Shown here: in pieces, positions 8,414 through 37,030 of the stretch
How the letters are laid out: every line of letters begins with the position of its first letter
Numbering within the stretch: position 1 is the first letter of the stretch
NCBI GenBank assembly: GCA_000708835.1
Contig: DF237637.1
Coordinates: 1-43,804 of the forward strand
Reading direction: 5' to 3'
Source of the DNA: Klebsormidium nitens
Lineage: Eukaryota; Plantae; Klebsormidiophyceae
Length of the DNA stretch: 43,804 nucleotides
Notes under the pieces: generated by a model
Seen by the model: only the letters and a program-made list of their open reading frames with translations
Databases searched by the model: none
Told to the model about the DNA's origin: nothing
Position numbers and translations under genes: made by a program

Positions 8414-8610
8414 TGACAACGGTTATGGGAGTGGTTACACCGCTGACAATGACGCTGACAGTGACACCGACACTGGCCGGGGCCCTCACTGTGACATTAA
8501 GGTTATGTTGCGAACCTGTGACGGTTCGTGGCAATCGACTAGCGGCTTGTTAGGGTTTAATACGCCACTTCCCAGTGACATTAGGGTTACTCACAGTGAC
8601 AGTGACAACC
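8414..8610. repeat. Cluster of about ten (C/G)TGAC(A) motifs with TTAGGGTT-like segments
   Basis: ctgacaa, ctgacag, gtgacac, gtgacat, gtgacgg, gtgacag and gtgacaa are seen directly; ttagggtt occurs at ~8550 and ~8581. The cluster lies between the divergent 8245(-) and 9234(+) genes. Confidence 0.55.
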
Positions 8611-9233
8611 GCTCACAAGATTCCCAACTAACCAACTGATTGTTCCAATCTCCGCGCGCCACGTGTCCCCCCTCCCGCACGGCTCGCGATCGGGCCGGAA
8701 TGACCAGCGGGGCGGTGGAACCATTTTACTTGGTAATCAGTTTCCCCAGCAAGTGGGGTTTAGGAGAATTTCTAGGTTTTTGTGACGCGTTTTGACCTCA
8801 ATCGACAAATGACGCCAACTTATCTGAAATATTTTGAACGTCCATGCCAAAGAGATGCAGTAACCAGCGCAGTAACTAGGGTGGGTCGAACTTGTCAAGC
8901 TCCCGCTGCCGTCGCGACTGCTTTTGGGGGCAAATGAATGCCGTTGATTATTGTTGAGATGGTCGGTTCTGGCTGATTGGCAGATCGGGCTAGAAACCCT
9001 AATAAGTATATAAAAAAGGGGGGCGTTGTTCCTGAGAACTAGCGCAATGGCGGCCATTCAAGGGGTGGGCAGTTTGTACGTTCTATTGGACACAAAGCGA
9101 ACGGCATTTTGCGAAGGTGAATGCATCACAGGCTAGTAAAAAGAACGTAGGAGTGTGTAAAATACCTTTGGCAACCTCCCTCAAGCTTCCTGCAAGGCGC
9201 TACAGCATTGCTGCTCTCATTTTGGATGCGCCA

Positions 9234-10358
9234 ATGGCGGCGGCCGCGGGCACTTCAAATGTGGTAGGGCCGCTTTTCTGGCCGACGAAGGTTGAGGGGA
9301 GGGGCGCCACACTTTGGGCCCGCAGCTCAGCCCAGAAGCTGGAAGCAGAAATAAAAAGTAGCTTCGGAGAGGAGGTAGTACAGATAGGGTATCAGCTGGA
9401 TTGCAAGACGGGCATCTCCTCATCTGTTGGGGGTAGGTACCCATTAAGAATGTACATGGAGCCTTCAAGCCAGGAGAGCACGGCATTATGTGTATTGGAC
9501 CATGCGGTGGACATGTCGTTGCCCGCCATGGCCCAGCGTATCCAAAGTTTAGAGCTGCCCCTATCGTCTGCTTGCTTTCACTCAGTGACAGTGGTTGCTT
9601 CACACAAGCACTTCTACACGCCCCTCCATGTCGACCCGCTTGGGATGGCGACTTGGATGGTTTTGACAAGGGGTAGAAAGCTTTGGCACTTTTGGAGTCC
9701 GCACAAGGGTTCAACAAGAGACATGGTACAAAGCAAAGAGGAGTCTTGCCCGCCCCCTGATATTGCAATTGATGCTGGAGTTGGCGATCTGATCCTGGTG
9801 CCGTCAGGTTGGGCTCACTCTGTAGTTACGAAGGAAGATGCGGTCGGATTGGCCGGCAACTTTTTGACCCGGGACAATGTTGCGGGGATAGACCTGGCAT
9901 TGTCCGAAGAGGGAAGGTCAGGTGGGCTCGAGGGAAACGAGCTTCGGGAGTTCGTTGCCAACCAGAAGAAGCAGCTTGCAAAAGACATGCGCGTTTCAGT
10001 GCGGGCGCTTGAGAATTTGCAGCAAAAGGCTGAAGCCTCTGCGGCGGCGGTGGTTGAAGCAGAGGGAGAGTCGCTTTCAAAAGCGTTCCAAGCAAAACAT
10101 GCAAAGCGGAGTGGGCGGGGCAAACATAAAATGGGGACAGGGAAAAGGAAAAGTTGTTGGCGCAAAGTTGGGCGTAATCGATATTGCAACCATCCGGAGC
10201 ACGAGCCAGGCTGTGCAAGGATGCTGAAACAGCGTGGTATTCCGGGTACTTGGTATGGCAAGCCAGTTGAAATGTGTAGGGCGTGCGAGCTGAGGTTTCG
10301 GGCCTCTCAAAAGCTGCACGAAGGGGACTTGGCTACACACTTAGGACTTGGGACATAA
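9234..10358 (+). CDS. JmjC-domain 2-oxoglutarate/Fe(II) dioxygenase with C-terminal basic and Cys/His-rich region
   Basis: Intronless ORF, first plausible ATG at 9234. JmjC/cupin motifs TPLHVD (HxD), GRKLWHF and GDLILVPSGWAHSV (distal His). The C-terminus has KRSGRGKHK and C..C.HPEH..C....CRAC. TATA-like tatataaaaaa at ~9007. Confidence 0.85.
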   Translation: MAAAAGTSNVVGPLFWPTKVEGRGATLWARSSAQKLEAEIKSSFGEEVVQIGYQLDCKTGISSSVGGRYPLRMYMEPSSQESTALCVLDHAVDMSLPAMAQRIQSLELPLSSACFHSVTVVASHKHFYTPLHVDPLGMATWMVLTRGRKLWHFWSPHKGSTRDMVQSKEESCPPPDIAIDAGVGDLILVPSGWAHSVVTKEDAVGLAGNFLTRDNVAGIDLALSEEGRSGGLEGNELREFVANQKKQLAKDMRVSVRALENLQQKAEASAAAVVEAEGESLSKAFQAKHAKRSGRGKHKMGTGKRKSCWRKVGRNRYCNHPEHEPGCARMLKQRGIPGTWYGKPVEMCRACELRFRASQKLHEGDLATHLGLGT

Positions 10359-11724: not shown

Positions 11725-11815
11725 CACGCTGCCTTGATCCTGTTTGAGAAGTGAGGAGGGGGTTTGAGCTAGTGAGTGGCTTTTTGAGGGGCTAAAATTG
11801 ATTGTGCTAGAGGAA

Positions 11816-11848
11816 TGATCGAATGAGGGGGCAGGAGCAGCTTTTATA
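11816..11848 (-). promoter_or_regulatory. TATA-box core promoter, copy 2
   Basis: The minus strand reads TATAAAAGCTGCTCCTGCCCCCTCATTCGATCA, about 120 bp upstream of the ATG at 11724. Confidence 0.8.
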
Positions 11849-12684
11849 GGTACCTTTCACCAACTACTATCAACCAGAGGCTTCTATGGAAGGCCTGAGT
11901 CAGACTTTTCTTGAGTGATTCCGAAGCGGTTCGATTGAGCGATTCCGAAGCCGTTTCGAGCTCTCTCTGAAGAGAAATCCGACTCAGACGTCTGAGCGAG
12001 CTCCATGGCTGGCAAAAAATCTGACTCGAACACTTGAGCGAGCTCCACCTGGCAGCTCACTGAGGCAATTGAGCGATTCCAACGTGCTTCTGATCTGCCT
12101 CTGATCGGAAACCCTGACTAAAAGAGACTTCAGCGAGCTCCAGCTCCAGCTCAGGCGGTTGAGCGATTCCGAAGCTGAGATTCCGAACCAATGAATGGTA
12201 CGGAACTCGAAACTTTACTTTTTCGGACCACGTGGCTCTGTCCACATGCCGGCTGAACTCGGCTGAACCCCCATCATTAAATTCCGAACCTCCGAGGTCG
12301 GTTACTGTCAGACATGCCTCAGTCAGGACTCTCCGGAATCGCTCAACCGCCTGAGTTGAGCTGGAGCTCGCCAAGACTTCTGAGTCAGCTCTCTCTTCAA
12401 AGCCTGAGCTTGATTCTGGAACCGGCACCTCGGAATCAAGCTCGGAATCGCTCAACCGCATGACCTGAGCTGGAGCTCGCTCAAATGTCTGAGTCAGGTT
12501 TCTATTCAAAGCCTGAGCTTGACTCCGGAACCGTCACTTTGGGATCGCTCTTTGAGACGTCTGAGTCAGCTTTCTCTTGAGAGAGAGCTGGAAACGGCTT
12601 CGAAATCGCTCAACCGGTTCTGATTACTCAGAAAAAGTCTGACTGACACCTCTTTGGTTTGCAGCAGCAGTGCTGACCAGTATC

Positions 12685-12717
12685 TATAAAAGCAGCTCCT
12701 GCCCTCTCATTTGATCA
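12685..12717 (+). promoter_or_regulatory. TATA-box core promoter, copy 3
   Basis: TATAAAAGCAGCTCCTGCCCTCTCATTTGATCA faces the primase-helicase gene. Confidence 0.8.
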
Positions 12718-13185
12718 TTCCTCCAGCACAATCCTTTTCTTATCCCTCAAAAAGCCACTCACTAGCTCACCTCTCTTCCCAGCGACTTCCCAAAGCCAGA
12801 AAGCAGCGGCATACAAGCATGCTCTCCCCCGATCTGCATACAAAGGTAGCAAGCTGAGTTTGCCAGTTGATGAAGGGTGGTGGTGTCTAAGTTCAGAGGC
12901 GGGTGAGCTGGAAGGAGCTGCGCATCAGAGAGCCAGGTAACAGCTGTCTGTACAACTGCGTTTTCTATGACGAATTTCCCTTGATGGACAGTGCGGACAC
13001 TGAAGACAGAACTTTTCAGTTCTCGAGCATACGAAGTTTATTTTGAACCGCTTTTTGTCTTCCCTGCACTGACAGTGTACTTGTCTGTCAGAAGAAGCCA
13101 TCTTACACAAAGTCCTCTTCATGGACAGTGCGGACAGTGAAGACAAAGCTTTTTGGTGGTCTGATCTGTTTGAATTCTTTGCAGG

Positions 13186-16100
13186 GTTCGGGTGAGCGCG
13201 CGCGGCCATCAACATCAGGGGAGGCCGGACCAAACCCAATGGTGAGTCGTTTCAAAGGTTCTGAAAGGCTGCTTGCGTTTCTTATGCACGAGAATTAACA
13301 GAAACTCTGTCTTCACTGTCCCCACTGTCCATCAAGGGAAAATCGCTGATAGAAGACGCATTCGCATAGACAGAGCTGTCTTTATCTACGAAATAGGATC
13401 TTCAAAACCATGTAAAGTTTGATTGCCTAGTCTGCTCGAAAAGTCTGCATTCATTCGCGCGCGCTGACAGCATGCTTGTCTGTCAAGCGAAAAGATCTCA
13501 CACGTTTTCCCCTCATGGACAGTGCGGACACCGCACTGAAGACAGAATATTTGGTCTAACTGCTCAAAGGTTAAGGTTTTTGATGTGGACAGCATGCTTG
13601 TCTGTCAAGCGAAAAGATCTTACATAGAGTTCCCCTCATGGACAGTGCGGACGGTGAAGACAGAGTATTTGGTCTGGCTGCTCAAAGGTTAAAGTTTTTT
13701 GATGTGCAGGAGACCGCAGCTAGGGGCATGGTTGAGCGGGGTTACGTCGTCTTCTCAGCATACACCAGTTTCAACACTCAGACGGGCAAGAAGGCCATGC
13801 TCCCACCAAAGCATTGGCACGATTCTACACTGGCCAACTGCCTCAGCCCCGCATATTTTGACCCCTGCGACAATACCCTGCTGATCAACACAGCGCCTTC
13901 TGGCGTTCTCGTGTTGGATTTCGACCTTCAAGACGGGGGCATGGAGCAGCTGGCTGAGTGGGAGAGCAAGCACGGCGCATTCACGGGGGCGCGAGTGCGC
14001 ACCGGCAGTGGGGGGGTCCATCTCTACTTCTCGCATCAACGAAGCGTGGAGGCGGGATTAGATGCAGGCACACCAACGCACTTTGCAAAGCTCGCGCTCA
14101 AGATCCCGGACCCAAAAATGGGGAAGGAAACGGTGAAAAAGGTGGGGGTCGATATGCGAGGCGTGAGCTCGAATGGCATGATTGCGTGCCCTCCATCTTC
14201 CTATCAGCGGGGCGAGGAGTTTGCGCGCTACACTGTCGCAGGCGGAGGGGACCTACCAGCTGTCGATGCTCTGCCTCCCCTTCCTGGATGGTTTATTGAG
14301 ATTCTGAACGAGCGAGCTTCTTCGAAAGCAGCGGGGGGCGCGCCAAAAAGCCGTCCAGGGGCTGGGAAAGCAGCTGCGGCAGGGGCTGGGGGTACGCAGG
14401 CGCGCGCTCCGGGGAACCCGCCGGATCTTGCGGATCCAGTTCTGCAACAACAGGTGGTCGAGGTCTTGCGGGGCATGCTCAGCAGCTACGGGGACAACAG
14501 TTCTGTCTTTCGCAAGGCAGAATTGAGCACAGTTGCCGGCCCGGAAGCAGTGATCTATCACTTTGAGAACGGTAATGGGGGCCGGGCAACGTGCCCTTAC
14601 CTCAAGGCAGGAGAACGGGCGCACAGCAGCAACAACTTCGGCCTACTTCGAAGAGGAACGGAGATCACGTACGTGTGCCACAGCGGGCGGTGCAAGAGCG
14701 AGGGGCGCAGAAACAAGAAGCNNNNNNNNNNNNNNNNNNNNNNNNNNNNNNNNNNNNNNNNNNNNNNNNNNNNNNNNNNNNNNNNNNNNNNNNNNNNNNN
14801 NNNNNNNNNNNNNNNNNNNNNNNNNNNNNNNNNNNNNNNNNNNNNNNNNNNNNNNNNNNNNNNNNNNNNNNNNNNNNNNNNNNNNNNNNNNNNNNNNNNN
14901 NNNNNNNNNNNNNNNNNNNNNNNNNNNNNNNNNNNNNNNNNNNNNNNNNNNNNNNNNNNNNNNNNNNNNNNNNNNNNNNNNNNNNNNNNNNNNNNNNNNN
15001 NNNNNNNNNNNNNNNNNNNNNNNNNNTTGCAGCTGCGTTCTCAGATGCAGAACCGTTGAACAGCGAGCGGGATCGACTGTACGAGGACCGACAGCTGCTG
15101 CCCCTCTCGTTTCTACGGGAGAATCTCTCGGTAGCAGCAGGTGAGGTTAAAAGTTTCGACGAGCTGGCACGCATTCCAGTCTCCAAGAAAGGAGCGCACT
15201 GTTTGCCTTGCTGAAGTTTCGAGCAGATTCTGCGAAGGCCCCAGACAGCGGTGCTGTCTATCAAGTGTGGAGGCTTCACTTGCAAAACTGTCTTCACAGA
15301 CACCATGGACAACAAAGACGGAGGTTTCAAAAAGAATTCAAAGAGTTGATTCTGTGAATGCCCCAAACAGCGGTGCTGTCTATCAAGTGCGGACCTTCCC
15401 TTGCAAAACTGTCTTCACAGAGACCATGGACAGCAAAGGAATCGAAGAGTTGAATTCAAAGAGTTTTGGTTCCAGATTCTCGTGCCTTTTCTGGTCTCCG
15501 ATGAGACAAACGATGCTTGATTTGGCGTTAAAAAAGGTCTGCAAGCCCCCGGCGAGAGTGTACCAACTCACAACAATCTATGCAGGTGATGAAGGCGGCG
15601 CGCAGATCATCGATCGCCTGCAAACCTACACCGGCCAAAAGCTCGTCTTCTCGAACGAGAAGTGGTACGTTTTCACAGGGTCGGTGTGGAAGGCAGACCC
15701 AGGTGGGCGGGAGGCTCAAAAGGTGTGCCGTGGAGAACTCAACAAAATCAGCGCTGCGTACCAAAAGGAGACTGGGGCTGCGGTTGAGCAAGACGAGAGC
15801 GAGGATGATGATGGCAGCGAGGAAGGGCCCCCGAAGAAGAAGAAGAAGAGGACAGAAAAGCTGACCAACTTCAACTGGAACGCACGGATGTCCAACATCA
15901 TGACGACCCTGAAAGGCTATTGCCTGGATCCGGGATTCGAGAAGCTGCTCAACTCCAACAGAGACGCTCTTCCCCTGCTAAACGGCGTCATCCTCCTGCC
16001 AACTGGCGAGTTAGTACCGCACCATCCCAAGGTGAGCTTGGGTTAAGGCATTTTGCCCTTGAAAACTGCTTTGAAAACTACCCAAATATGACCGGAAGTC

Positions 16101-18040
16101 AGTCTGACAACCGACAATCTGCATATTTGCAGTTCCTGTGGTCGTTTCGTAGTTGAATACTTCGTGTAATCTACCGGTGGCCAACTTTTCAAAATCAGGC
16201 CTGGCCCTCCACATGCGTGCTCATAACCGTAAAACTTCGACTTAGTTGTATCGTTCAGTCCGCTTCAGAAAGTGCGTGAAGTTGTGCTTCAACGTAGCGC
16301 ATCGACTGAAGTGAAGGAGAAAAGAGGGATAGCATTCAACAGGCAATCTGACAACCGACACTCTACCTTTTGCAGTTCCTGTGGTCATTCGTGTTGGGGT
16401 ACAGGTGGCCTTCGACCGGTGTCCACACGCCGTTAGGCCGGATGGGCGAGTTCCTGAAGGAGATCACGCACACCCCAGAAGCTCTAGCCTATCTTCAGCG
16501 CATCCTAGGCTACGGCATCACTGGTCACATCTCCAACCAGGTCATGCTCATCATGATCGGGGAAGGTGGTGCTGGAAAGAGCCTCCTATTGACGCTCCTG
16601 AAGCGCCTTATTGGCCCGTTCTACAAGGACGTGTCAAAGGATATGTTGGTGACTTCGAAGGGGCAACGGCCGCCCAGCAAAGGAGCTGCCAACCCGGACG
16701 AAGCAGGTAATAGTTTTAGACAACGTCTGAGGAAGTTAGAGCTGTGTCTGATTCGTAATTGCATGCTAGACCGTAGAGCTTCTTTTGAAAAAGTCGAGCT
16801 GGTTTCTCATATGCGGATCTTGCAGACTTCTAAGCACTTTTCTCTTGATGTGCACGTGCGCAAGGACTGCAAGGGGTTCGAATGGCTGTGTGTTCGGAGT
16901 CGGAAGAAACCGACGAGTTTGCGGAGAGCAACTTGAAACGGCTCACCGGAGAGGCAACCATCACGAGCAGAGCGCTTTACAGTGACTATGTCACTTTTCA
17001 GACGACACAACTGGTGAGGAATAAACCACTGATCCCCTCACGGGCAGACATCCATTCATCTTTTGACTTCCTTTTGCAATCTCTGTCTTTGCTGTCCATG
17101 GTGTCTGTCAAGTACAATCTGCAAGTGAAGGTCCGCACTTGATAGACAACACCGCTGTTTGGGGGCCTTTACACAATCTGCTCGAAACTTCAGCAAGGCA
17201 AACAGTGCGCTCCTTTCTCGGAGACCGGAATGCGTGCCAGCTCGTTCAGATTCTACGAGGTGTTGAGAAGTTTTTTGTCTTTGCTGTCTGCACTGTCTTT
17301 CAAGCTAGATTCGTATAAGCATGCTTCCCTTGGTGGACAGTTACCGTGTCAACCAATGCTCAAACTTCCGCTGAAAACTCGAAAAAAACTGGAGGTGCCG
17401 GTTTACGAGCTAAATCCTTTTTGCATTTTGTCTGCAGCACATTCTCTGCACCAACTACCCGCCGCGTGCCAAGAGGTGGACCATTGCGCTGAAGCGCCGT
17501 CTGCTTACCCTGGTTTTTCCAATGCGCTTCTTCTACCCTCAAGAGGCGGGGTACGACCCGAAAAACCCACACCATGGGGTCAGAGATGATGCGCTCGAAA
17601 GCATACTGATGGCAGAGGTCGAGAAGCTGCTGGTTTTCTTGGTCATTGGAGCAAAGGACTGGTATGAGAACGGGAGAAGGCTACTTGACATGCCAGAAAC
17701 TAGCAAGAGATACATGGAGTCCTGGGAGCAGTCAAACGATCCGTTCGCAGCTTTTATGAAATACGAGGGCACCATCAACACCAAAGCATTTGAGACGTCG
17801 GAGTCTCTGATGACGGCTTACAACAACCCGGACAGGCTGGTTGACGGCGTCAGGTTTGAGGAGACAGGAGCTCCGATGATTCGCACTAGTCAGGAGTTAG
17901 CCAAGTATTGCAGAGCCCATGGTCTAGATGGTCCGGGGAAGCCTTCCGAATTGAGATTCGTAGATGCAGGCCATCAGATCAGGGGCTACCGAGGATTCAA
18001 ACTGAATAAGCCAACGGACCACAGTCGATTGGAGCGATAG
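13186..18040 (+). CDS. Intron-containing bifunctional primase-polymerase (Prim-Pol) / Zn-finger / D5-type SF3 helicase
   Basis: Predicted exons: 13186-13240 (tentative), 13710-[gap 14722-15026]-15140, 15586-16031, 16376-16706, 16865-17013 and 17438-18040, all junctions phase-compatible. Motifs: VLVLDFD, RTGSGGVHLYF, VDMRG, ACPPS (Prim-Pol); CPY..H.SNN..YVCHSGRC (Zn finger); LPLLNGVILL (D5_N); GEGGAGKS (Walker A); AVCSESEE (Walker B); ILCTNYPP (motif C); KRRL (Arg finger). Confidence 0.85.
14722..15026. other. Assembly gap (305 N)
   Basis: The run of n characters lies inside the primase-helicase gene. Confidence 1.
15159..17245. repeat. 161-bp inverted repeat pair (15159-15319 and 17085-17245)
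   Basis: Hand alignment gives roughly 85-90% identity, including an uninterrupted identical run agaaaggagcgcactgtttgccttgctgaagtttcgagcagatt. Both arms are intronic. Confidence 0.92.
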
Positions 18041-18408
18041 AGCGGCAAGCAGGCCCTTTTGCTTGACATCATTTGCCACAAGTGCGCTGTAACTACGAAC
18101 TGATTTATATGTTGATGAAAGCTTGATTCGTCATCAGGGAACGGATCCTTCCCTGATTCGAACACACACGTAAATCCAACGACTCTTTCGCGAGTGTTCA
18201 TAAACGTGCGCATGAGTGTTCTTTTTCGACCTTCCTTCAAGATTCTGTCTTCAGTTTCCATGCTGTCTATGAAGCCAAATCCCTGTACGAAGATCTATCT
18301 TGATAGACAACACATTGGCATGGCAAGCTTCCGGCGTGATGACCAGGTATGAGCCTCGTTCCGTTCCCGTTTTGGAACCATGAGCTTCGTTAACGGTTCG
18401 AACATCAT

Positions 18409-18798
18409 CTAGTCAACGGCTGCCGTTGGATTTGAGGTGGCGGTCTTCACGCATACAATCCTATTTTCAGAATCAAACTCAACGCCTGCTTCCTTCAATT
18501 TCGATATGGTCCTCGCATGCGGTTTTGTAGTTCTTCCAGTCCGAAGACGCTTGGCAGCGTCTTGTAGTAAGAGCCCGTGCTTGTGTTTCTGATACCATAT
18601 CTTCTTCCGCTCAAGCACACGCTGTTTGTTGCATCTGTAAAAATCTTGTCTCTTTAATTGAAGCTCTTTGCACCTCGGCACGCCGTCTGATGATTGAAGA
18701 GAGATTGGAAGTATTGCAATTTGAACAACTCGATGCTTCATTCCACAAAGGGTACAAGGAACTAAGCGTATGATGGTTATCTCCGCGCCGGTCTCCAT
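18409..18798 (-). CDS. Small basic protein, paralogue of 24257-24535
   Basis: ATG start with TATATAA just upstream. It has an N-terminal CxxC, and WYQKH...A.KR.R.G....P...T..KL..AG is shared with the 24535 ORF. Confidence 0.65.
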   Translation of the reverse strand: METGAEITIIRLVPCTLCGMKHRVVQIAILPISLQSSDGVPRCKELQLKRQDFYRCNKQRVLERKKIWYQKHKHGLLLQDAAKRLRTGRTTKPHARTISKLKEAGVEFDSENRIVCVKTATSNPTAAVD

Positions 18799-18864
18799 TT
18801 CGTTGAAATGTTATATAATCTACTCTTCATTCATATATTTTTTTCCAACAGATCAACGCAAAGC

Positions 18865-19215
18865 TCAGTTGTCTTCTGCCTCCTTGCATACCTTGAGAGT
18901 CCTCTTTGCCATCGATAGTAGAAGCGCTGCCTCCTCCTCGGAATACCCACCCGTCTCATGATCTGTTATACTTGCTGTGATTATGCCGAAAACATCGCCC
19001 CATGAAACGACGAATTCTTCATTACAGAGTCGATAAAGCAAAAGCAAAACGCCCTTCCGTAGCAAAGTCATGTCGATGGGAAGTCGGAGCCCTTCATCCA
19101 CGAGGCCTTCATAGCGAAGAGGTCCAAAGCTCTCAATCTCGTCGATGAACGGCAACAAGCTATATAGACGAGGGTTTGCCTGCTTTGGCACGTAGTACGT
19201 GTAGCCTCGCTCCAT
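18865..19215 (-). CDS. Hypothetical protein (116 aa)
   Basis: ATG-initiated intronless ORF tightly packed in the cassette, with normal globular composition. Confidence 0.6.
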   Translation of the reverse strand: MERGYTYYVPKQANPRLYSLLPFIDEIESFGPLRYEGLVDEGLRLPIDMTLLRKGVLLLLYRLCNEEFVVSWGDVFGIITASITDHETGGYSEEEAALLLSMAKRTLKVCKEAEDN

Positions 19216-19272
19216 TTGGATCTTTCTTTATAGAAAGGAGAAAAAAATCCATGCTCTTTAGGTCTCTGTCTC

Positions 19273-19851
19273 TCAATCTTCATCGCTGTCAACTGCAACA
19301 CATCTGAACGTTGTTATCTTGCTTCCCCGAGCCTTTCCGGTGGCTTTTGAAGTGCCTCTAGTAGCTGATTGTTTTGCTTTACCTTTATCAGTTGACTTTC
19401 TCTTGGAAGTCTGCTTTGCAGCCTTGCTCGAGGTTTTCTTTGTGCTCTCTTGCTTCTTCTTTGCCTTTGAAGCGGAAGCGTGCATCTTAACAAGCTCATC
19501 AACCGGTACCTTAGTTGCTGATGTTGAGAAGGTTCCTTCGAACGGAAGTCCAAGCGGTCGTTCACACTTTCGGATTGGGGAGATCTTCACCTCGTACCCA
19601 AATTCTTTCTTAGCCGAACCTCTGGTCGTTTCCTGTAAGAGAACATAGACAGTGCAGGGTGCTTTAGCTGCACCGTTACATTTGAGTGCCCTGAATAGCT
19701 GGCTACCCGCACGGGTGCCTGCTTGCGAAACACGTCCCCTTTCAGCATCGATCTCGAGACGAGTGTCTTCGAGAAGGCTCGAAGCATCTGATTGGTTATG
19801 GTCAAGCGCAAGAAGCACCTTAAATTTTCGTTTGTAGCATGCAGTATCCAT
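19273..19851 (-). CDS. Hypothetical protein with Lys/Ser/Ala-rich basic C-terminal tail
   Basis: ATG-initiated 192-aa ORF with the tail KAKKKQESTKKTSSKAAKQTSKRKSTDKGKAK. Confidence 0.65.
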   Translation of the reverse strand: MDTACYKRKFKVLLALDHNQSDASSLLEDTRLEIDAERGRVSQAGTRAGSQLFRALKCNGAAKAPCTVYVLLQETTRGSAKKEFGYEVKISPIRKCERPLGLPFEGTFSTSATKVPVDELVKMHASASKAKKKQESTKKTSSKAAKQTSKRKSTDKGKAKQSATRGTSKATGKARGSKITTFRCVAVDSDED

Positions 19852-20510
19852 TAGACCGGCTGTATGAATGTAAGGTCAGATAATAAACGTGGAACGAAAA
19901 TGCATCATGCTGCCTACCTTGGAGGTTGGCCCCCTGAAGCACTTCGGTCGTCTTCTTGATCTGGCAAAGTTGTTGACAGACAATTTGCAAAAGTTGCCCC
20001 TCTATGATCAGATAGTTGTCTACATGAAGCACTTTGAAAAGATGAACGACCCCAGTCACTATTCTAGAAGGGAGAGTCCGGATTTCGCGAAATTAGGACT
20101 CAAATGTGGGACCCCAAAAGCACAAAAAGCTGGGAGCTTTTGCTGGAATTGACCGCGTGTTGGGAAATCTTGTCACTTTAGAGTTTGAATTCTGGGATTG
20201 CAGCTGAAGATCAAAGATCATGTAACTGATTCTAGAATTGGAAAGGTGGTGCATCTTAGCAAACTGTGTTCCTACCTGAGGCTCTTGGATTCTAGAATCC
20301 AAACAAAGTGGGAAGTTTTTTGACCAAGTAGCAATCGTCCATCCCAAAATTCACCCAGAAAGGTTGGAAATTCGAAGACCAATTCCAGCCCCTTGATTTC
20401 GGCTGGCCGGGGGTTCTGAAGCAGACATTCCTAGGGGGTGCATCTTGAGGAGGCGTTCGTTTCAATTTCAGAATTATTGTAGATGATGTATGATATAGGG
20501 TTGCCAGTTG

Positions 20511-21581
20511 ATGGATTCGGAAGCATCCGTTCAATCGAGTACAGGATCCACATCCGACAAAGGAGGGGATAACGAAACTCTGCGACCAATTGCATCAGGT
20601 GAAGCTGCTTTGCGCAACCTGTTTCAAACGGGCAAACGGGCTGAGACAACTGTTCTACAATATCTGAACAGTGTGCGAATGATTCATACTCTAGTTACGG
20701 GCAATAAGGTGTTGCCTTCCACGTTAGATTGGATGAAGGATGCATCTATCATCATTGAAAAGCTCGACCAGGTCTACAAAAATCCTGGAACGTTCAAAAA
20801 TAAGCTGACCCCGTTAATGGTCATTGCTCACGAAAAGGGATGGGAATGCGCCTATAAGAAATACTTCGAGAGCTTCTCAGAGAAGAAGGCGGTCCAGATG
20901 AAGAAGGCCGATGAGCAAAAGGCTACCGAGAAAGAGGCTTCCAACTGGATAAGCATAGACGAGCTCAAAAGCAAAGCGGAAGAGCTCAACAGACACATCC
21001 GGAGGAACATAATGCCAAACTTAAAAGATAACGGTGCAAGTCTCAGCAGAGACGAGATAAAGTGCGTTTTCCAGCACTTGTTGATCGCAAGCAACCTTCA
21101 TGAGCCACCCAAGCGACGAGATCTGAGCGGACTTCCTCTCCAAAAAGCGGACGGAAGCTTCTACTGCGGTGAAGCCGAAAAGACGTATAGGGATACCGGC
21201 AATTGTCTACGAGAAAGCACAAGTGGGGAGTTTTCGCTTGTGCTTAAAACTTATAAGACGTCGAAAAAGTACGGGAAGAAAGAGTTTGAGCTTTCACAGC
21301 GTCTCAATAACTACATTCGACGGTCGATCGAGTTGGTTCCTAGGGGTTTTTTGTTATCGCGGCTTGGGGATACGAATCAAGCTATGTCCGATAACTATTT
21401 GACCAAGTTCATCTCCTCAATTACCTTTCCAAACGGAAAGCGATTGAATCAGAATCATCTGAGGCATCTTTACATTAGCGAACACTTCAAAAACGATCAT
21501 TCGATTGCTGAGAGGAAGCAGTTAGCTGAGAGGATGTTGCACGACTGGGGGACAGCAATGGTTACATACGAGAGAAAGTGA
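20511..21581 (+). CDS. Tyrosine recombinase/integrase of the type seen in Polinton-like viruses and virophages
   Basis: Intronless ORF with catalytic motifs in the expected order: PPKRRD (R), YKTSKKYG (K), NHLRHLYIS (R), LAERMLH (H) and terminal TYERK (Y nucleophile). Confidence 0.85.
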   Translation: MDSEASVQSSTGSTSDKGGDNETLRPIASGEAALRNLFQTGKRAETTVLQYLNSVRMIHTLVTGNKVLPSTLDWMKDASIIIEKLDQVYKNPGTFKNKLTPLMVIAHEKGWECAYKKYFESFSEKKAVQMKKADEQKATEKEASNWISIDELKSKAEELNRHIRRNIMPNLKDNGASLSRDEIKCVFQHLLIASNLHEPPKRRDLSGLPLQKADGSFYCGEAEKTYRDTGNCLRESTSGEFSLVLKTYKTSKKYGKKEFELSQRLNNYIRRSIELVPRGFLLSRLGDTNQAMSDNYLTKFISSITFPNGKRLNQNHLRHLYISEHFKNDHSIAERKQLAERMLHDWGTAMVTYERK

Positions 21582-21608
21582 TCAGCATTGAGCCAGAGTT
21601 GAAGAATA

Positions 21609-24077
21609 TCACCCCGATGAGATCAGTAAAGTTGGGTCAGAAGCCCAGGATCCGTCCCAATGGACTTCATCGACTCTCAAACGAACTTCTTGCAGCCGTT
21701 TCTCCAGTTCGTTCCTAGTTGGAAAGATCAAGCCGCGACCACAGGTGTCTTTGTAACCATCCAGTCCAAGTGTCCGTTTGATACGACCAATCAGCACATC
21801 CTTCTGCTGTGGCGGATCCTCTCTTGCGCCCTGATTGTCTATGAATGACCTGTAAGTTCGGAAGATGGTGGCACTTAGCACCTTGGTCTTTGAATCTGAT
21901 GAAAAGTTGCCGTTATCTAGCAACCCGCAAATCATCTTTGCCCAAAAGGGAATCGAGTGCTCTCTTAAAGCCGAACTCCACTTGCTTTTTGGGATCTGCT
22001 TGGGGTTCCAGGTGTTGATGCCTTCTCTTGACATCAAGTACCGGTAGAAGTGTTCAGCTGTAGTGGTAGTGAGGCTTTCACAAAGCCGATCAAAGTACGG
22101 TTGATCTCCGATTCTAGAGTCGGAGGCCTCAAAGCATGCATACCTTCTGTCTGTCGCTTCTTTCTTGATGGGCCAGTCCTCGTTCGTATTAAACCAGTAA
22201 TTTGCAAGGTCGGGTACTTGAAGGGGATCGATTCCTTTCTTTTCAAGGATCGTCGAGTCTTGGGTGATCAGGCTTTTCAACCGATTATTGCTTTTGTAGG
22301 CTCCACCCCAACTGCTCACTTCATCGAAGCATACCAAAAGAAGGTTTGCGGCTATTCCGTTGAACTTGCCAATGACCTTTTCCATATCGTTGCAGTACAG
22401 ATAGTATCGCGATCCGATGACATGCTTACCCACAAAGTCAGTGATTATGCTTTTGCCTGCGCCTTGGTCAGACCTGAAGACCAAGGCTGTTCCGATCTTC
22501 TTGTACGGCTTCTGCACAAGATGAGCTAACCAGTTGAGAATGTATTCCGCTACAGCAGGATCGTTGTCAGCAAGTACTTCGTTGATGTGCTTCAAGAGAA
22601 GATCAATTTGTTTCATGTCAACAGGTTGATTCGCTTCGTGAGCCTGGAAGGGAAAGCCGTAGAACAGGTTGTAGTTATCAGGTGAAACCATACGAGAGTT
22701 CGTTTCGAAGACTACCTTGTTGAGAGTCCTTCTCGCTGATGACTTGCACCACACCTTCCCAAGGTTGCCGATTTTGACACTATCCAGGTTGAATGATTCG
22801 GACCGTTCCAGAAACTCAGCTCTTGTACGAAGGATGCTGTCATTTGGCACCCAAGCAGTACCTCTTTCAATGAAGATGGTCTCGATAAAGAGTACTTTTG
22901 AGCTGCCGTCTAGAACGCAGAAGTAGTGGTTCATTGTGTCGATAGCAATCTGTGTGAGTTGCTGACATAGTTGCTGATACTGCACTTTGTCCACAGTGCT
23001 TTTGGCACTGATTATAATTCTCTCAGCTTCTTCAATAGGGCGCAGATCAAAGCGTGCTTTTGAAGTCAAAAGCGAACGCCAATGGTGCAGCCCGAGAAAA
23101 ACTCTCGGTCGTTCTTTGCATCCTGTTGACAAACAGCGGTACTCCATGCAGATCCCGTTGCAGATGATGCTGAAACTGTTGCTCGTGTGTTCCTCTCCGT
23201 AAGGGCAGATCCTGCTGTCCTTCACTCTGAACTTTAAGATGGCTTCCTCATCTCGACGCTTGATGCCTCGGTAGAAACTTGTTTGATCGTTGCATCTACT
23301 TCGCAGTAGCTGCGTTGCAACTTGGATTGCCTTTTCGGCCTCGACGGAAGAGGTTGTTTGCTGAGACGAGAGTTCTTTGGTGATTGTCTTGTCCGCTTTT
23401 GCTTTGCTGACAATTGATGTATCATTGCTGGAGGGTTTTGCCGACCCTTGGGCAGCTTGCTTTGTGGAGTCTTGAGAGTTAAGGATTTCTACGAGCCACA
23501 ACGGAAGGCAGGCAAGCTTCGTCTTCCAAGGAGAGTTTAGCCATCTGTATGAATGCTCTTCACCGTCACGAATGATGGTAGTTGGGGGTGCGAAGCAGAT
23601 GCCATTGCCTCTGAAATCGATGGTCGTTTGGGTGGAGTTGATGCATAGCTTGGTCGCGTCTGCCTTCCGTTCAAGCCCGGGGGAATCCGCTTTGAAGTAG
23701 TAGTGCAAGCCGCCACTCTGTGTTTCGGCTGTCCAGGTGATGGGTTCGCCGTGGTCTTGTGTCAATCGTTTCCAGACATCAAGACCATTAGCGACGGCTT
23801 TGCTTTCATTCAACTTGGGCAAGTCGATATCAACCATGACAATGCTATTTGGTCCCGGTCGTCCGCAGAGCAGGGCAAGGGCATTCTTGTCGGAACAATC
23901 ACGAATAAGATCTTCGTGCAACCCCCAGGAAGCCTCATCCACGATGCTTGAGTAAGAGCACCTAAAGTTGCTTGCGTCCTTCTTCCTTTCCTTTTTGTTC
24001 CATGTAAGCTTGAGCGTAACCGGCAGGAGATGAAGGCTCCGATACGATGAGATGCTTTCATTGAGGTCCGGATTCAT
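21609..24077 (-). CDS. Intronless Prim-Pol / Zn-finger / NrS-1-like (DUF5906-type) SF3 helicase, 822 aa
   Basis: First ATG at 24077. Motifs: VMVDID, ETQSGGLHYYF, IDFRG, FAPPT (Prim-Pol); CPYGEEHTSN..YRCLSTGC (Zn finger); SDQGAGKS (Walker A); VCFDEV (Walker B); WFNTNED (motif C); DRRY (Arg finger). Confidence 0.9.
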   Translation of the reverse strand: MNPDLNESISSYRSLHLLPVTLKLTWNKKERKKDASNFRCSYSSIVDEASWGLHEDLIRDCSDKNALALLCGRPGPNSIVMVDIDLPKLNESKAVANGLDVWKRLTQDHGEPITWTAETQSGGLHYYFKADSPGLERKADATKLCINSTQTTIDFRGNGICFAPPTTIIRDGEEHSYRWLNSPWKTKLACLPLWLVEILNSQDSTKQAAQGSAKPSSNDTSIVSKAKADKTITKELSSQQTTSSVEAEKAIQVATQLLRSRCNDQTSFYRGIKRRDEEAILKFRVKDSRICPYGEEHTSNSFSIICNGICMEYRCLSTGCKERPRVFLGLHHWRSLLTSKARFDLRPIEEAERIIISAKSTVDKVQYQQLCQQLTQIAIDTMNHYFCVLDGSSKVLFIETIFIERGTAWVPNDSILRTRAEFLERSESFNLDSVKIGNLGKVWCKSSARRTLNKVVFETNSRMVSPDNYNLFYGFPFQAHEANQPVDMKQIDLLLKHINEVLADNDPAVAEYILNWLAHLVQKPYKKIGTALVFRSDQGAGKSIITDFVGKHVIGSRYYLYCNDMEKVIGKFNGIAANLLLVCFDEVSSWGGAYKSNNRLKSLITQDSTILEKKGIDPLQVPDLANYWFNTNEDWPIKKEATDRRYACFEASDSRIGDQPYFDRLCESLTTTTAEHFYRYLMSREGINTWNPKQIPKSKWSSALREHSIPFWAKMICGLLDNGNFSSDSKTKVLSATIFRTYRSFIDNQGAREDPPQQKDVLIGRIKRTLGLDGYKDTCGRGLIFPTRNELEKRLQEVRLRVDEVHWDGSWASDPTLLISSG

Positions 24078-24256
24078 CTTAGGGCTGGACACCCCCTATG
24101 ATAAGTACTAAGGAAAAAAGTTTTGATCGGAATCTGAACGCACTGAAATTCTGACAGTGAGCTAGGCCCCTTACTGCACACTGAGTACAATTGGATCATC
24201 TGAGAGGGTAAACTTTGAGGAACGTGCTATGGATAAGCGCACATCATTTGAAGATA

Positions 24257-24535
24257 CTAGCATGTCTCACTTATTGGCCTTGAGTGGCGGTTGCCAAGTT
24301 CTTGCACATATCCGGCGTCTACAAGCTTTGCTAAAGTAGAGGGCCGAAGAGTCTTGCCATTCGAATACCTAATCAAAGCTTTACGCAAGCAGATTTCGGC
24401 CTTAGCCTTGTCGTAATGCTTTTGAGACCAAAGTCGATATTTGTCGAGATTGGTCTGCCGATAGCGCATCTCATACAGCCGCCGCTGATGATTGGCATCA
24501 TGATTTCTCGTCTCGGAAACAACTGACATAGACAT
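24257..24535 (-). CDS. Small basic protein, paralogue of 18409-18798
   Basis: ATG-initiated. YRQTNLDKYRLWSQKHY..LRKALIRYSNGKTLRPSTLAKLVDAG aligns with the 18798 ORF. Confidence 0.65.
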   Translation of the reverse strand: MSMSVVSETRNHDANHQRRLYEMRYRQTNLDKYRLWSQKHYDKAKAEICLRKALIRYSNGKTLRPSTLAKLVDAGYVQELGNRHSRPISETC

Positions 24536-24621: not shown

Positions 24622-24798
24622 TTGGACACCTTGACCGCTCGCTATTTCGTCATGTGAGGGGTTTTTGAAAATCGATATCCATGACTTGCAAATAGCTGCC
24701 AAGGTGTCCAACGTGCCAGGATGGTGAAATCGTGTAGTGCACTCGTAGTGCAATCATGCTGTTATGTATTATCATCAAGTATAATAAAGAGGTGCCAG
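24622..24798 (-). repeat. ~180-bp TGGCACC element, copy downstream of the KDZ gene; contains a hairpin at 24622-24711
   Basis: The reverse complement aligns with 30301-30475 (ctggcacct..tatacttg..aatacata..tggcac..tcatg..ttttcaaaaa.cccct). It holds a perfect 12-bp inverted repeat ttggacaccttg (24622-24633) / caaggtgtccaa (24700-24711). Confidence 0.75.
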
Positions 24799-24894
24799 TG
24801 TGTGTTCTAAGTCTTGTTCCTCGTCCCTACATGAACGATAGCTCCCCACACGCTTGCGGGAAAGCTCAACAGCTATCTATCAACACATGGTCTA

Positions 24895-27800
24895 TCACCT
24901 GTACAAGAGAGCTGCGCGAACTGCCGGCGACCACTGATCAACCCTGGCTGCTATTCTGATCTTCTGGTCATCAACACGTGTCAACTCTGCGTTGCGCCCG
25001 CTCACTACGTTAGCTAGAATGATCATGAAGGACTCGAGAGCGGAAAACCAAGCAAGCACCTTGAACTTTATCAGGAAGGAGTTGACGCTCTCCACCGCTG
25101 AAGTGTTAACCCAGCGCACAGCGTCGTATAAATCAGGATTGTACTGAGGGCCACACTTGTGCGCCTCCGCGCCAGTCTTCTGAAAGTGGAACCTGCACGC
25201 GCGTAATTGGACAGTTTGGACACGGGACGGTTGCTGACGTCATTAGAAACGGGGCTCCCAGAAAGTCTCGGTGGTAAAAGCTCAGACACTTGGACACGGG
25301 ACGGCTGCTGACGTCATCAGAAACGGGCTCCGAGGAAGATATGGCAAGAGCTTGGATAGCTGGACAAAGGACGGTTGCTGACGTCATCAAAAACGGGATT
25401 CGAGAAAGATCTGGCAAAAGCTTGGACAGCTGGACAAGGGACGGCTGCTCACGTTATCACAACCGGGCTCCCAGAATCTGGCAAAAGCTTGGACAGCTTG
25501 GACACGGACGACAAGTGGCAGAATGACGCTCAAATGTATCCTGGAAAAGTGTTGATTATCTCGTCCTAGACTAACAAACAATCATTCGAAACCATGGACG
25601 CGTATGCGGTTTTTGTACTTGCCGGTCAACCAGGCATCGCATGTCTGCAAAAAATGCAGGCTCCCTCCTCATGCTGTACGCGCGCAGCTTGCAGGCGTTG
25701 TCGTAGAAGAGAAAGGAAGGCAGATTGTGCCGCTGGAGGCGGGTGTACAGCACCGCGAACGGATCACGAGGAGACTCCCCCCGGAGCATCGCATGGAACC
25801 CGTAGATCACCCTGTGAGAGCAGCAGAAGACGAACCCCCCCTTTGTGTGCTTCTGCAGCCGCTTGCCCGCCTTCTCACTCTTGGCCGCCGCAACCTTGGC
25901 ATCAAACTCCCCGACAGTGAGACCGCTCTTACAGCGGTGCTCCTCGCTGCTCTCGACCGCCAGACCAAGGTCATTTTCAAACGGCTTGTACTGGGGCAGG
26001 GGCCGTTTCTGCTCCCAACTGGGGAGGGGGTAGCAGCCGAGCGCGTTCTGCTCTTGGCAGTAAGGGTGGTCTTTGGGGAGCGCTTCGAGAAGCCGTCCGT
26101 CCGGGGAGAGACCCAGCCGATCGTGCAGCAGCTCGCGTTCGGCTTGGTTAAGGGCATACTCGAGGGGGGGTGGGGGGCGCAGAGCCTCGACGCCGGGGAG
26201 CAGCCGGTTTGCTCTTCCTCTCCAGAACGTGTAGCTCTCCTCTCTCTCTTCGTTCCAAGACCCTGGGACCTCCCGTCGCAACTGCAGCAGCCAAACGCAG
26301 GCATCCAACCCTTCGATAGCAGACAGCGCCCATCCGGCTCGACCGACCCCCAGCCCGACCGCCCCGCGTCCGAACAGCGTCAGTCGGTATAGATGATGGA
26401 GCGTGGGAAAAAAGAAGGCCGGAAACACTTCGTCGTAGTTGTCCAGCACTCGACGAAGGATGGGCGCATGCTCTGCCAGCACGGCCTTGCCCCCCTGGTC
26501 TACTGGACCCCCCAACAGTATCGCCCGGACAACAGCAAGCGCCCGCCAATGCTGGATCAGATTGCTGTCGTCGCTGACGGTTTGAGGGGACCCCAGAGCG
26601 TACAGCGGTTCCGCCCACCACTTTCGCGGCGACCGCACTCGACCGTTATTGGCGCCCGGAGTCTCCCCCCGGATCCCCTCCAACAGCAGCCGTGCAGCTC
26701 GGTTCTTCGATCGAATCTGCCCGATCTGCTCCTGCAGAAGGCGCCTCCTCCAGTGCAGCAGGATGGGCTCTGCGTCCGCATCGTCCGGATTGGCGACGAA
26801 GTCGGAGACGAGTTCCACGTCATCGCGATCCAGCGCAACCTAGGTAGAAGTCAAAGATGTCAGACGCCCTTCGTCCAGGTTTACCGAGCTCTTCATAGGC
26901 ATATCATTCCGAAAACCTAGACCGATTTCAAGGCTCCACTCGAAGACCTTGTTGCGCTCTTTTTAGTCCCACTGCAACAACCTTGGCTAAGCATCAGAAG
27001 GATTCATCGCGCATATACGGAGCAGACTGGCATCAAAGAGCGTGCGCAACTTGCGCTCGGATCGCTCCAAAGTCAACGTCAGATTCAACTCTAAGGTTGC
27101 CACAGAGACTGAAAAGCTCCGCAGTTTGAGTTTAGGGTCCATAACTCTGCTTGAAGAGAGTTATGTCGTGCACATTTGTCAGAACTCTAGCAGTTTTGGC
27201 GAGGGTGTTGTCCGTTCAGTGTGGGAGGGGAAAAGGGTCTGGAGCCACCTTCTGGCACCTTTCTTTATTACTTATAATGTAAGTGTATATAGGAATGGTA
27301 CACACTTTTCAATGGTTTGGCACCATGGCACCATGGCACCTATTTTCAATCATGGAACTTTCCATCAAGGAACTTTCAATCATAAAACACCTGAACGAAT
27401 AGAAAACAAGAGGCGCCAGTGCCATGGTGCCAGTGGGTGGGAAACTTACAAAGATGTTTTTGATCACAAGATTTGTTCCACCTACCAGCAGCTCTTGGAA
27501 TTCGCCCTCGCTCAGCTGCGCGCCCAGGTCCGGGTCCTTCGGATGATGCTGGCTGTACCGCGCCAGCAGAGCCCGCAGCTCCGGCTGGTGGATCAGGCGC
27601 CGCTTCAGCCCCCGCCCCTCCAATGCAGTCGCGCTGAAGTTCACACCGGCTTCCATGTGCTTGACGACAGTCTCCCCCGAACTGTTCCGGCTTGGAGCCG
27701 TGAAAGGCCGGAGTTCGCTTGCCGCCGTCCCCGCCAACCCGCCTTTCGATCTGCTACCGTCCGCGCACGCTAGCCCGGCGATACCATCGCAGAGCAGAAC

Positions 27801-31671: not shown

Positions 31672-31858
31672 ATAACTCTCAAGAAAGATAATAGTAAGCC
31701 AAGATAATAGTAAGCTCCGACTAACACTAAGAACCCTAACCTTAAATGAACACCCGCTCCGCAGCCGTACCCACCCTAACCACCATACTAACCCTACCCG
31801 TCACAGTGCGGTTACCTTACTATTATCTGGGCTTACTATTATTTTCTTTGAGTTTCAT
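31672..31858. mobile_element. 187-bp MITE-like element with ~43-bp TIRs and 9-bp flanking direct repeat
   Basis: Left end ataactctcaagaaagataatagtaagccaagataatagtaag; the right end reverse-complements to atgaaactcaaagaaaataatagtaagcccagataatagtaag. AAAGTCCGG flanks both sides (31663-31671 and 31859-31867). Confidence 0.85.
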
Positions 31859-34880: not shown

Positions 34881-37030
34881 CCGTATTAAGGCTTCAACAC
34901 GGCTGCAATCAATATGCAGTCGCATCCCTTCAAGGTATAGACGGTCGAGGTCAAGTTGTAAATAGATTATTGCTTGGAGTAGTATATGCCATGGGCAGAG
35001 TAGGTCGGAAACTTGACAAATATCATATTGCTAGGTTTGCCAATGTCATGCGGGTCGGCCGGGTGGCATGCGGCTAACACGTCGCGCTTTTGAAAAGATT
35101 GGTTATGGTGAAAAGTTGTCGGCCGGACGTCCCTCGGACGGGCATTGGTCGAATCCTGATCGTTTTGACAGCCGCAACAGTCAGTGACTAGCTTTTGGGT
35201 TCACCAACTATACGACTCTACTCTAGTAGGTACGTAGTCAAAGGTTGTTGCCTGAATGTTGCGTTTCGCATTTGTTGCAAATGCAACTTGAGCACAGCTA
35301 GCTATTTGTGCTTGTGCGAGCTGCGACCTGACCGTCCGTTCGGGCGGCCAGCAAATGAAGCAAGCCGAAGCCAACCGCTTATCAATTGGATAATCTGGAT
35401 TTGGCGCTAGACAGCCACGCCCAATGCATTAGTCGGAAGGTCTAGCGCGCTCAGAGTGTGAGTGGACGAAAAAGAAGACACGAGCAACTTGGATTCTAAG
35501 ACACAACTGAGCGCTAAATGTTGTTACCGGTGTTCATGATGATGAAGACGTGTTTGCAATATGCTTACGGCCACCTTACGGCTCATGATCCGTCTGAGCG
35601 CAGGCTCAGGCTGAGACCTCAATGCGCCGGCTCAGGCATGCGGCCCATTCTATATGACCGAATTGTGTACTAGCCTAGCCGCCGGCGGCGCTTTGCTATG
35701 AAGGCTAGCCTCTTTCGAGCATATACTGAGCTCAAACAACACTGGCACGTGCGGTTAACTGTATTCAATTTATACCGAGCTAATGATGTCCCCCGACAAG
35801 AAGAGTAGATTAGAGCGTCGTTGCCGCTTAATTCAACCTGCGCCTGCACCGTGACACAATCGTCTGTACCGGGCCCACCGATTCATGTATATAATATCTT
35901 GTTCTTAGCTCAACTGCAATAAGAGAATTGCATTCTTGGCCCCACCGTTGATGTATGAATTCAAGTCGTCGGATTCTATATGAGTCCGCCATTTGGTCGG
36001 ATGTTGGATGTAGATATCTGCCTCCTGTACTAGCTAGCTTAGCATGTCAGTGTGTGAATGGAAAGCATACTAGGATGTGCTAAAATTCAAAAAATGGGCT
36101 ACGTCATGCATATGAATTTAATCAGAAGAACATCAACGGCACAACAGCAACTGATTGGCGAATCTACCGTACCGGAACTTAGTACTAGCTAGCAGAAGAA
36201 TCATAATTCACCATGCATATCTAATGATACACGCATGCGGGCCCGCGGCATGGCTATTGCGGCAGTTCGAACTGCCGCAATAGATGGTAACTTCTCATTT
36301 ATTAACGCCCTTAGCCACATCAGAGCCATGGAGCACGGTCTCCGGCAGACCCGGGATAGTTTGTTGACTCTACATGCAGCTTGCTACAGCTATAGATCTA
36401 GTACTTGAATGTGTGTAACAAGTGCATGCACCATGTGCCACTAGGTCTCATTGTAGGCACGTACTGCATCGCACTACAATGATGTAGCCGGCAATAAGCT
36501 CTAGTATGCAATGGCTCCGCTCGAGCCTAGCCGCTTCGCCGGCAATTGCGTGATCAGTCAGGCTCCTGGCAAACATTTGATTGGAACGGAAAACATTGAG
36601 ATCATAAGTAAACTTTAAAATCATAACCATTCAAGCGTCACTGAGTTGCATAGGCATTGCAGGCCTAGCAGGTCTAGCTACAACTCTCCGTTTCTGATGG
36701 AGCACTGCAACTTGTCACTAGCCTAGTTTAGTACTACTATGGCACTTGATCTGGTCAGGCTCACATGTTCGAGGCAAAAGCCCCCACTAGTTCTACAGTT
36801 CAGCAGAATGCTGGCGTTCTCAGTATAAGAGCCGGCCATGCAGCGCTTTCTATGTGGGAACCACAATTTCACATCTAACTTACAGCGTGCAATAGTTACT
36901 ATTATTCTGTCCGACATGCACTTGAGGCACATTCTTTCCGTTTGTCGCCTGCAACGCATACTCATTTGTTCCGCACAGCACGTAAACTCTATTCCATCTT
37001 CAACCTCCAAGACTAACATTCTCAAGCAAA

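Follow-up and report, generated by a model that had tools for sequence, protein, structure and literature searches.

We analyzed a 43,804-nucleotide stretch of the genome of the alga Klebsormidium nitens (contig DF237637.1 of assembly GCA_000708835.1; hereafter, the window), which contains a spliced primase-helicase gene accompanied by ten related units of 64–68 bp, of which four introns hold nine and the tenth lies 206 bp 3′ of the stop codon. The gene encodes Prim-Pol (PF09250), D5_N (PF08706), and SF3 helicase domains, as identified in a Pfam scan, and by its sequence appears to be virus-like, or virus-derived. When all readings of that kind are taken together, the units are probably binding sites for a protein. 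The presumptive binder, which we name tentatively on the strength of sequence, a structural model, and analogy, is a winged-helix domain predicted at the C-terminus of the primase-helicase itself.

The original prediction, which was made from the letters of the window alone, offered two explanations for the units: that a common mobile sequence had seeded the introns, as introners do, or that the units are iteron or recombinase binding sites that survive only where splicing removes them. The second alternative, of putative binding sites kept in spliced DNA, appears to fit, since the boxes within the units are better conserved than the spacer, their spacing is constant, the units are retained in paralogues, and the winged helix is predicted in the same gene.

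Anatomy, conservation, and copying of the units

A profile search recovered all ten units (E-values of 1e-19 to 1e-8, with the next non-overlapping match at 0.12) and bore out that they occur in both orientations and are absent from the exons and from the rest of the window. Introns 1, 2, 4, and 7 hold two, three, two, and two units, respectively. A degenerate 27-letter pattern, allowing up to two mismatches, gave 8 matches against 0.00 expected from 100 shuffles, and in leave-group-out scoring, nine of the ten units exceeded all 76,484 positions outside the gene (U4, which has a 5-bp insertion, was omitted). The length had originally been given as 64–65 bp; it is indeed near-constant, but the range reaches 68 bp. 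Similarly, the proposed TGTCT…AGACA termini are exact in seven units, but the real inverted repeat is internal and conservation continues beyond the termini, while the core sequence that was quoted fits the five units of introns 1 and 2 and no others. The unit pattern found no match in metagenome, viral, or prokaryote collections, and blastn of one unit against phages and plasmids was likewise without a match. We also considered kinship with the GGACA-rich 70-bp repeats at 25198–25510, which proved not to be significant (E 0.63–1.9; score 7.9 vs. 32–45).

At the core of the unit, two 11-bp half-sites with the sequence TGTCYRTSAAG are paired in inverted orientation, 23–26 variable bases apart. 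Two further GACA boxes follow the inverted half-site in exact 9-bp steps, apart from the one unit with the 5-bp insertion; RACA is found 7 bp to the left in seven of the ten units, and RAR to the right. From arm to arm, the length is 45–48 bp in every unit, whereas simulated windows (50 runs) held 0.46 such arm pairs on average and 2 at most. Mean identity over all 45 unit pairs is 76% in the boxes (40 bases), compared with 50% in the spacer, 43% in the shuffled spacer, and 49% in the right flank; for U1 and U2, the boxes are 87% identical and the spacer 41%. Such a pattern of conservation suggests half-sites that are read by a protein. The boxes call to mind auxin-response TGTC elements, resolvase half-sites, and the 9-bp repeats of IS607, resemblances for which we found no supporting paper, and no proteins of these kinds were seen in the window.

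Pairing between the half-site arms is possible in 80% of 110 cells. However, compensatory changes number 0, which is below all 500 shuffles, and the fold z-scores of nine of the ten units (−1.5 to +0.6) are no better than those of shuffles. We therefore concluded that it is the sequence, and not the pairing, that is kept. An RNA or DNA hairpin and a small nucleolar RNA were rejected as candidates, given the lack of covarying structure and the presence of units in both orientations; an Rfam scan of the units at E up to 1 returned 0 matches.

Two processes multiply the units, namely tandem duplication of 122 bp and copying from intron to intron in inverted orientation. There are two such tandem duplications, one each in introns 2 and 4, and two inverted copies, namely the U1/U3 pair and a 186-bp block that introns 4 and 7 have in common (88% identity). 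Paralogues carry a unit of the intron-1 type in intron 4, and none of them closely matches the intron 4 of this copy, which was probably overwritten from intron 7. Units thus move between introns, with the sites remaining occupied. Two other runs have a unit at the intron-4 site and one at the 3′-flank site of paralogues, and both intron-7 units were retained while the intervening 111 bp were replaced (33 letters in one run).

In a DNA run from the same species, 94 of 108,136 contigs matched the window at 80% identity. Mean depth was 42 in unit bins, 57 in exon bins, and about 20 in single-copy contigs, where depth is not copy number and copies below 80% identity are invisible to the comparison. 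There is no repeat here with close copies in the hundreds, and at 80% identity or more, the DNA contigs show the units not to be abundant across the genome; the first of the two outcomes named beforehand as refuting the original prediction was thus not borne out. Among the joints listed, five contigs of the species have an end in a unit region, and all five are linked to a primase-gene promoter, intron, or exon (12737>13069, 13149>13668, 15148>13111..13153>15558, 13154>13932, and 13155>13460).

Recent local copying of this kind, by the tandem duplications, the inverted block, and the U1/U3 pair, would also be seen if the units were functionless, neutral relics of one old small repeat, or transposon end, that inserted into an intron already present in an ancestral copy and was spread by tandem duplication and gene conversion. 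The gene duplicates intron DNA anyway, as in a unit-free 50-bp duplication in intron 5, and the TG/CA/TA variation at half-site positions 5–6 resembles what the decay of methylated CG would leave. However, relics are expected to decay evenly, whereas the boxes have kept their identity and the spacers have fallen close to the shuffled level with their length preserved; furthermore, the units persist in paralogues in which the DNA between them has been replaced. We consider the neutral explanation unlikely.

Before five of the ten units lies an exact GACA-N7-TGTC, i.e., 4-bp arms around 7 bp, with a near match before two more. Tyrosine-recombinase sites consist of inverted arms around a 6–8-bp overlap, and the units might accordingly be recombination or synapsis sites of the neighboring putative tyrosine recombinase (20511–21581). 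The three direct 9-bp boxes resemble arm-type sites, and inverted copies in different introns could arise as a by-product. Nevertheless, with ten sites in one gene and in both orientations, deletion or inversion of exons would be expected, whereas exon order is unchanged in the paralogues, as judged from contigs, which are blind to rare events; in addition, the recombinase label comes from catalytic motifs, and sequence searches of Pfam, PHROGs, and the PDB gave no recombinase match. A role as recombination sites is very unlikely.

A candidate binder in the gene's own replicase

Folded with an 18-row alignment, the last 172 residues of the primase-helicase gave a predicted local distance difference test (pLDDT) score of 80; a single-sequence fold of the same region, with a pLDDT of 36, was not used. 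In a structure comparison against 48,161 chains, the top three matches were RFX5 (Z 6.8, root-mean-square deviation (rmsd) 3.4, 75 aligned), RFX1 on its X-box (Z 6.5, rmsd 3.3, 74 aligned), and the origin-binding domain of phage P4, 1KA8 (Z 4.7, rmsd 3.3, 73 aligned). Foldseek found no match at E 0.001, its best rows being C962R of African swine fever virus (ASFV). We put binding by the gene's own replicase first because these middling fold matches agree with the architecture of pRN1 ORF904 and of the P4 α protein.

Like the K. nitens gene product, P4 α combines a primase, an SF3 helicase, and a C-terminal winged helix in one protein, and short sites in direct and inverted orientation lie near its gene (PMC4234260). 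P4 α binds its origin repeats through the winged-helix domain (PMC4234260, PMC2777425). The two differ in that the primase of P4 is of the DnaG type and that of K. nitens is a Prim-Pol; moreover, the K. nitens gene sits in a eukaryotic host and is spliced, with composite 64-bp units spread through its introns. Composition over the window, in 1-kb steps, revealed no AT-rich block. ORF904 of pRN1 has the same order of Prim-Pol, D5_N, SF3, and winged helix (PMC2777425), and it too has a cis-site just downstream of the gene; its origin, however, is a single 100-nt stem-loop that is conserved in structure and not in sequence, whereas the K. nitens units conserve sequence boxes rather than pairing. 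A stem-loop origin of the pRN1 type behind the K. nitens gene was rejected, with a fold z-score of −1.24 for U10 and no compensatory changes.

By sequence, modeled fold, and analogy, the units may serve a replicase of the P4/pRN1 type as an array of iterons or operators. If a protein reads the boxes, selection would keep them; exons could not carry such boxes, and the introns and 3′ flank would have come to host them once the virus-derived gene had gained introns. The replicase would load on the units as on iterons, using them as the origin or as accessory sites of a self-copying element, as P4 α does, and its binding there might also throttle its own transcription. On this account, selection would retain the arrays and local duplication would shuffle them. 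It is possible, but on balance doubtful, that such genes belong to undescribed nuclear self-copying elements of Klebsormidium, with a plasmid-type Prim-Pol/SF3 replicase whose introns hold the iterons that serve as both origin and autoregulatory operator, and in which gene conversion matches the sites to the winged helix of each subfamily.

Several observations weigh against binding by the replicase. The second Prim-Pol gene of the window (21609–24077) is intronless and has no unit. The units are not grouped as in a compact origin but stretch over 5.4 kb, with both orientations represented. Neither the ends of an element nor free copies were found, and there may be copies of the unit away from primase genes, since the joints were judged among those listed. 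The contrast between boxes and spacer is partly circular, in that the boxes were chosen by their conservation and the units were found through the boxes, although the constant spacer length is not built in by that choice. U7 is in decay, and in another run, a copy almost identical to that of the window differs at one TGTC base within U3 (13370 A>T). Finally, the structural matches have Z-scores below 8, which is middling, and such a winged helix is found throughout the family, including pRN1, which nevertheless uses a stem-loop rather than iterons (PMC4234260).

The same box conservation, spacing, and lack of pairing would be produced if the units bound another protein, encoded by the element (e.g., by the small basic gene at 18409–18798) or by the host, that maintains expression of the gene or prevents its silencing in the manner of VANC. 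VANC21 targets in Arabidopsis VANDAL elements are likewise short motifs that tandem duplication has amassed in the introns and non-coding flanks of a selfish element (PMC5735166), and in K. nitens, silent transposons are methylated (PMC5890265). Contigs that we take to be RNA (described below) cover two paralogues well, and the promoter carries a second class of boxes, common to three promoters, which would make the element rich in cis-arrays. The K. nitens unit differs from the VANC targets in its fixed bipartite geometry and in belonging to a replicase-based element; no VANC or Mutator transposase family was found in the 119 window frames scanned with Pfam. Furthermore, family searches with the small basic protein gave nothing below E 0.09, and the CpG ratio is 0.75 in the introns compared with 0.79 in the window. 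Binding by such a protein, which we propose by analogy, is somewhat unlikely.

Splicing, intron positions, and the origin of the introns

The original prediction listed the same four unit-bearing introns, with limits that are corrected in Table 1. Introns 5 and 6, which were absent from that list, are without a unit; however, their avoidance by the nine intronic units is not significant (p = 0.11 by length, and 0.23 if the units are counted as six independent events). The numbering skips “intron 3”, the place of a 305-N assembly gap where paralogues and relatives have no intron; the true length of the gap, judged from their sequences, is probably far below 305.

Evidence of splicing was sought in four contig sets that we guessed to be RNA, although they are not on record as such (RNA-type contigs). 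Those matching the window's own copy of the primase-helicase are only short and of low depth. In a ~90% identical paralogue, introns 4–7 are skipped with GT-AG ends (intron 4 in all four runs, intron 5 in two, intron 6 in two, and intron 7 in one), and the proposal that these regions are spliced out is thereby upheld for a close paralogue. The acceptor of intron 2 is supported by the same paralogue, whose DNA contig matches the window from 13668, whereas its RNA-type contig matches only from 13709, the two being tied by a variant at 13814. In intron 5, the splice acceptor and exon start are duplicated (16097–16146 and 16341–16389, 86% identity), and use of the upstream copy would lead to a stop soon after.

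We initially read the unit-bearing introns as young, but dropped this idea given that distant relatives have introns at the same positions. In relatives, down to 40–62% identity, the fragments predicted by the gene caller have an end or a start at the positions of introns 4, 5, and 6. The intron-4 position is common to relatives at 40–67% identity, including relatives at 40–51% in both main clades, and that of intron 7 is common to a clade at 40% identity. Judged by this comparison, the positions of introns 4–7 are old; introns 1 and 2 are poorly covered by it. One subfamily (P0006, P0017, and P0020; 45% identity) is continuous across the intron-4 position and shows no trace of intron 2 at its start, yet breaks at the unit-free intron 5. 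In a tree of the relatives (25 rows and 151 columns, with P0200 and P0054 omitted for lack of overlap), it groups with intron-bearing relatives at a support of 81/93, which is weak, and the loss of intron 4 in this subfamily is therefore as likely as a late gain in the others.

Introners, like the units, place related sequence in several introns, and are already known from viral genes (PMC12130899, PMC12166617, PMC12768974). By the published criterion, an introner shows similarity to both intron boundaries (PMC12130899). The K. nitens introns do not: the similarity of introns 1 and 2 stops short of the ends (39–221 of 248 with 265–432 of 468), introns 4 and 7 are alike only in inverted orientation, and the distance from unit to splice site varies from 8 to 337 bp. 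Thus, the similarity is internal, does not define the splice sites, and is found in one gene family with old intron positions. Target-site duplications are also lacking, as had been noted at the outset, with flanking direct repeats never above 3 bp in any of the ten units. Neither introner-like seeding nor gain of introns 4–7 at new positions is borne out, and supplementary file 7 of PMC12130899 lists K. nitens with 0 introner families. In favor of an introner-like element having created these introns, with the units as its remains, each of the four unit-bearing introns holds at least two units, and the subfamily that reads through intron 4 is without a sign of intron 2; that it breaks at an intron lacking units speaks against it. 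Such an origin is the least probable of the explanations considered, and is largely refuted for recent gain, while ancient seeding that has since decayed may lie behind the units. A mini-transposon, or miniature inverted-repeat transposable element, was rejected on similar grounds: the inverted repeat is internal, conservation runs past both claimed ends, the longest flanking repeat is 0–3 bp, and there is no high dispersed copy number at 80% identity or more.

The gene family and its surroundings

Table 1. Coordinates of the primase-helicase gene, its introns and units, and adjoining features of the window
Feature	Position	Strand	Remarks
Primase-helicase coding span	13239..18040	+	Prim-Pol (PF09250), D5_N (PF08706), SF3 helicase, predicted C-terminal winged helix
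Coding exons	13239–13241, 13710–15140, 15586–16031, 16376–16706, 16865–17013, 17438–18040	+	Piecewise agreement with paralogues; first exon is the predicted start codon
Predicted RFX/P4-type winged helix	17738..18013	+	Residues 73–164 of the folded 172-aa piece; candidate binder
Intron 1	12937..13184	+	Predicted GT-AG, 5′ untranslated region
Intron 2	13242..13709	+	Directly after predicted start codon; acceptor supported in paralogue
Intron 4	15141..15585	+	GT-AG; spliced in ~90% paralogue
Intron 5	16032..16375	+	Unit-free; spliced in ~90% paralogue
Intron 6	16707..16864	+	Unit-free; AAG acceptor; spliced in ~90% paralogue
Intron 7	17014..17437	+	GT-AG; spliced in ~90% paralogue
U1, intron 1	12945..13008	+	8 bp from donor
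U2, intron 1	13082..13145	+	Profile search
U3, intron 2	13308..13372	−	Inverted near-copy of U1 (boxes 87%, spacer 80%)
U4, intron 2	13477..13544	+	5-bp insertion; first copy of 122-bp tandem duplication (13466–13587)
U5, intron 2	13599..13662	+	Second copy of tandem duplication (13588–13706)
U6, intron 4	15255..15320	+	Within 186-bp block 15159–15342, 88% inverted copy of 17062–17245
U7, intron 4	15377..15441	+	Second copy of 122-bp tandem duplication; most decayed of the ten
U8, intron 7	17084..17148	−	Profile search
U9, intron 7	17276..17339	−	Profile search
U10, 3′ flank	18246..18309	−	206 bp past stop codon
Assembly gap, 305 N	14722..15026		~24–29 letters and no intron in paralogues and relatives
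Inverted duplicated promoter	11765..12769		Common to primase gene and divergent small gene; TATA at 12685 (+) and 11848 (−); separate box class (GTCTGAGTCAG)
Divergent small phage-like gene, KFL_006880030	11275..11724	−	Nearest Atlas clusters mostly tailed-phage hypothetical proteins (0.94–0.95); phrog_38666
Small basic gene behind U10	18409..18798	−	Gene end also behind primase in paralogues; second candidate binder

The primase-helicase family of K. nitens includes at least 14 other named proteins at ~40–87% identity, two of which (KFL_002790160/170) are paralogues encoded side by side; KFL_011440010, KFL_010680030, and KFL_008030065 represent the subfamilies at 40% identity. In paralogue P0005 (KFL_005140020), a response-regulator receiver domain is annotated as fused where the winged-helix end is expected, which may be an artefact of the gene model. 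Among solved structures, the nearest sequences are ASFV C962R and poxvirus D5 (E 4e-4 to 8e-3), and protein-based locus searches of metagenome and viral contigs found no relative. Virus-like inserts of the nucleocytoplasmic large DNA virus type are known in the Klebsormidium genome (PMC5294986); the present family differs from these, and from ASFV C962R and poxvirus D5, in being multi-copy and intron-rich, with only 25–35% identity to its intronless relatives, which lie outside K. nitens. No Pfam match to a capsid, packaging ATPase, or DNA polymerase B was found in the window, and in the literature searched, which was mainly open, we found no published description of this replicase family or of its intronic arrays.

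The window has three homologous promoters (at 142–445 and within 11765–12769), with TATAAAAG at 405+, 11848−, and 12685+, in each case after repeats of GTCTGAGTCAG-type boxes; the second and third promoters are the halves of an inverted duplication that drives divergent genes. An RNA-type contig of a paralogue starts inside the promoter repeat region. Downstream of the primase-helicase, an intronless virus-like module (18409–24535) comprises small genes, a 356-aa protein without a database match that we presume, from its motifs, to be a tyrosine recombinase, and a second primase-helicase (Prim-Pol/DUF5906, 822 aa). Two of the small genes, at 18409–18798 and 24257–24535, are homologous (33% over 60 aa), and one adjoins each primase. 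Beyond the module lies a KDZ-transposase-like element (24776–30418) with weak Pfam KDZ and CxC4 matches, 30-bp inverted ends (24776–24805 and 30294–30323), a duplicated end near 27245–27363, and four 70-bp tandem repeats with GGACA triplets (25198–25510). Elsewhere in the window are a JmjC-like intronless reading frame below the Pfam cut-off (9048–10358), a 37-bp inverted repeat around telomere-like AACCCT words (31678–31852, with similar words near 8540–8590 and 41950), a spliced LD-carboxypeptidase (Peptidase_S66) gene of a bacterial-type family (32916–34880), and a perfect 30-bp palindrome (36254–36283).

If our favored explanation is true, a replication gene derived from a virus or plasmid would be using its introns, within a eukaryotic nucleus, to carry its own cis-sites. 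It would represent an expressed, old, and multi-copy replicase family in an alga that is close to land plants. The protein and its putative sites form a directly testable pair, and the divergent subfamilies at 40% identity would allow a test of co-evolution between site and protein.

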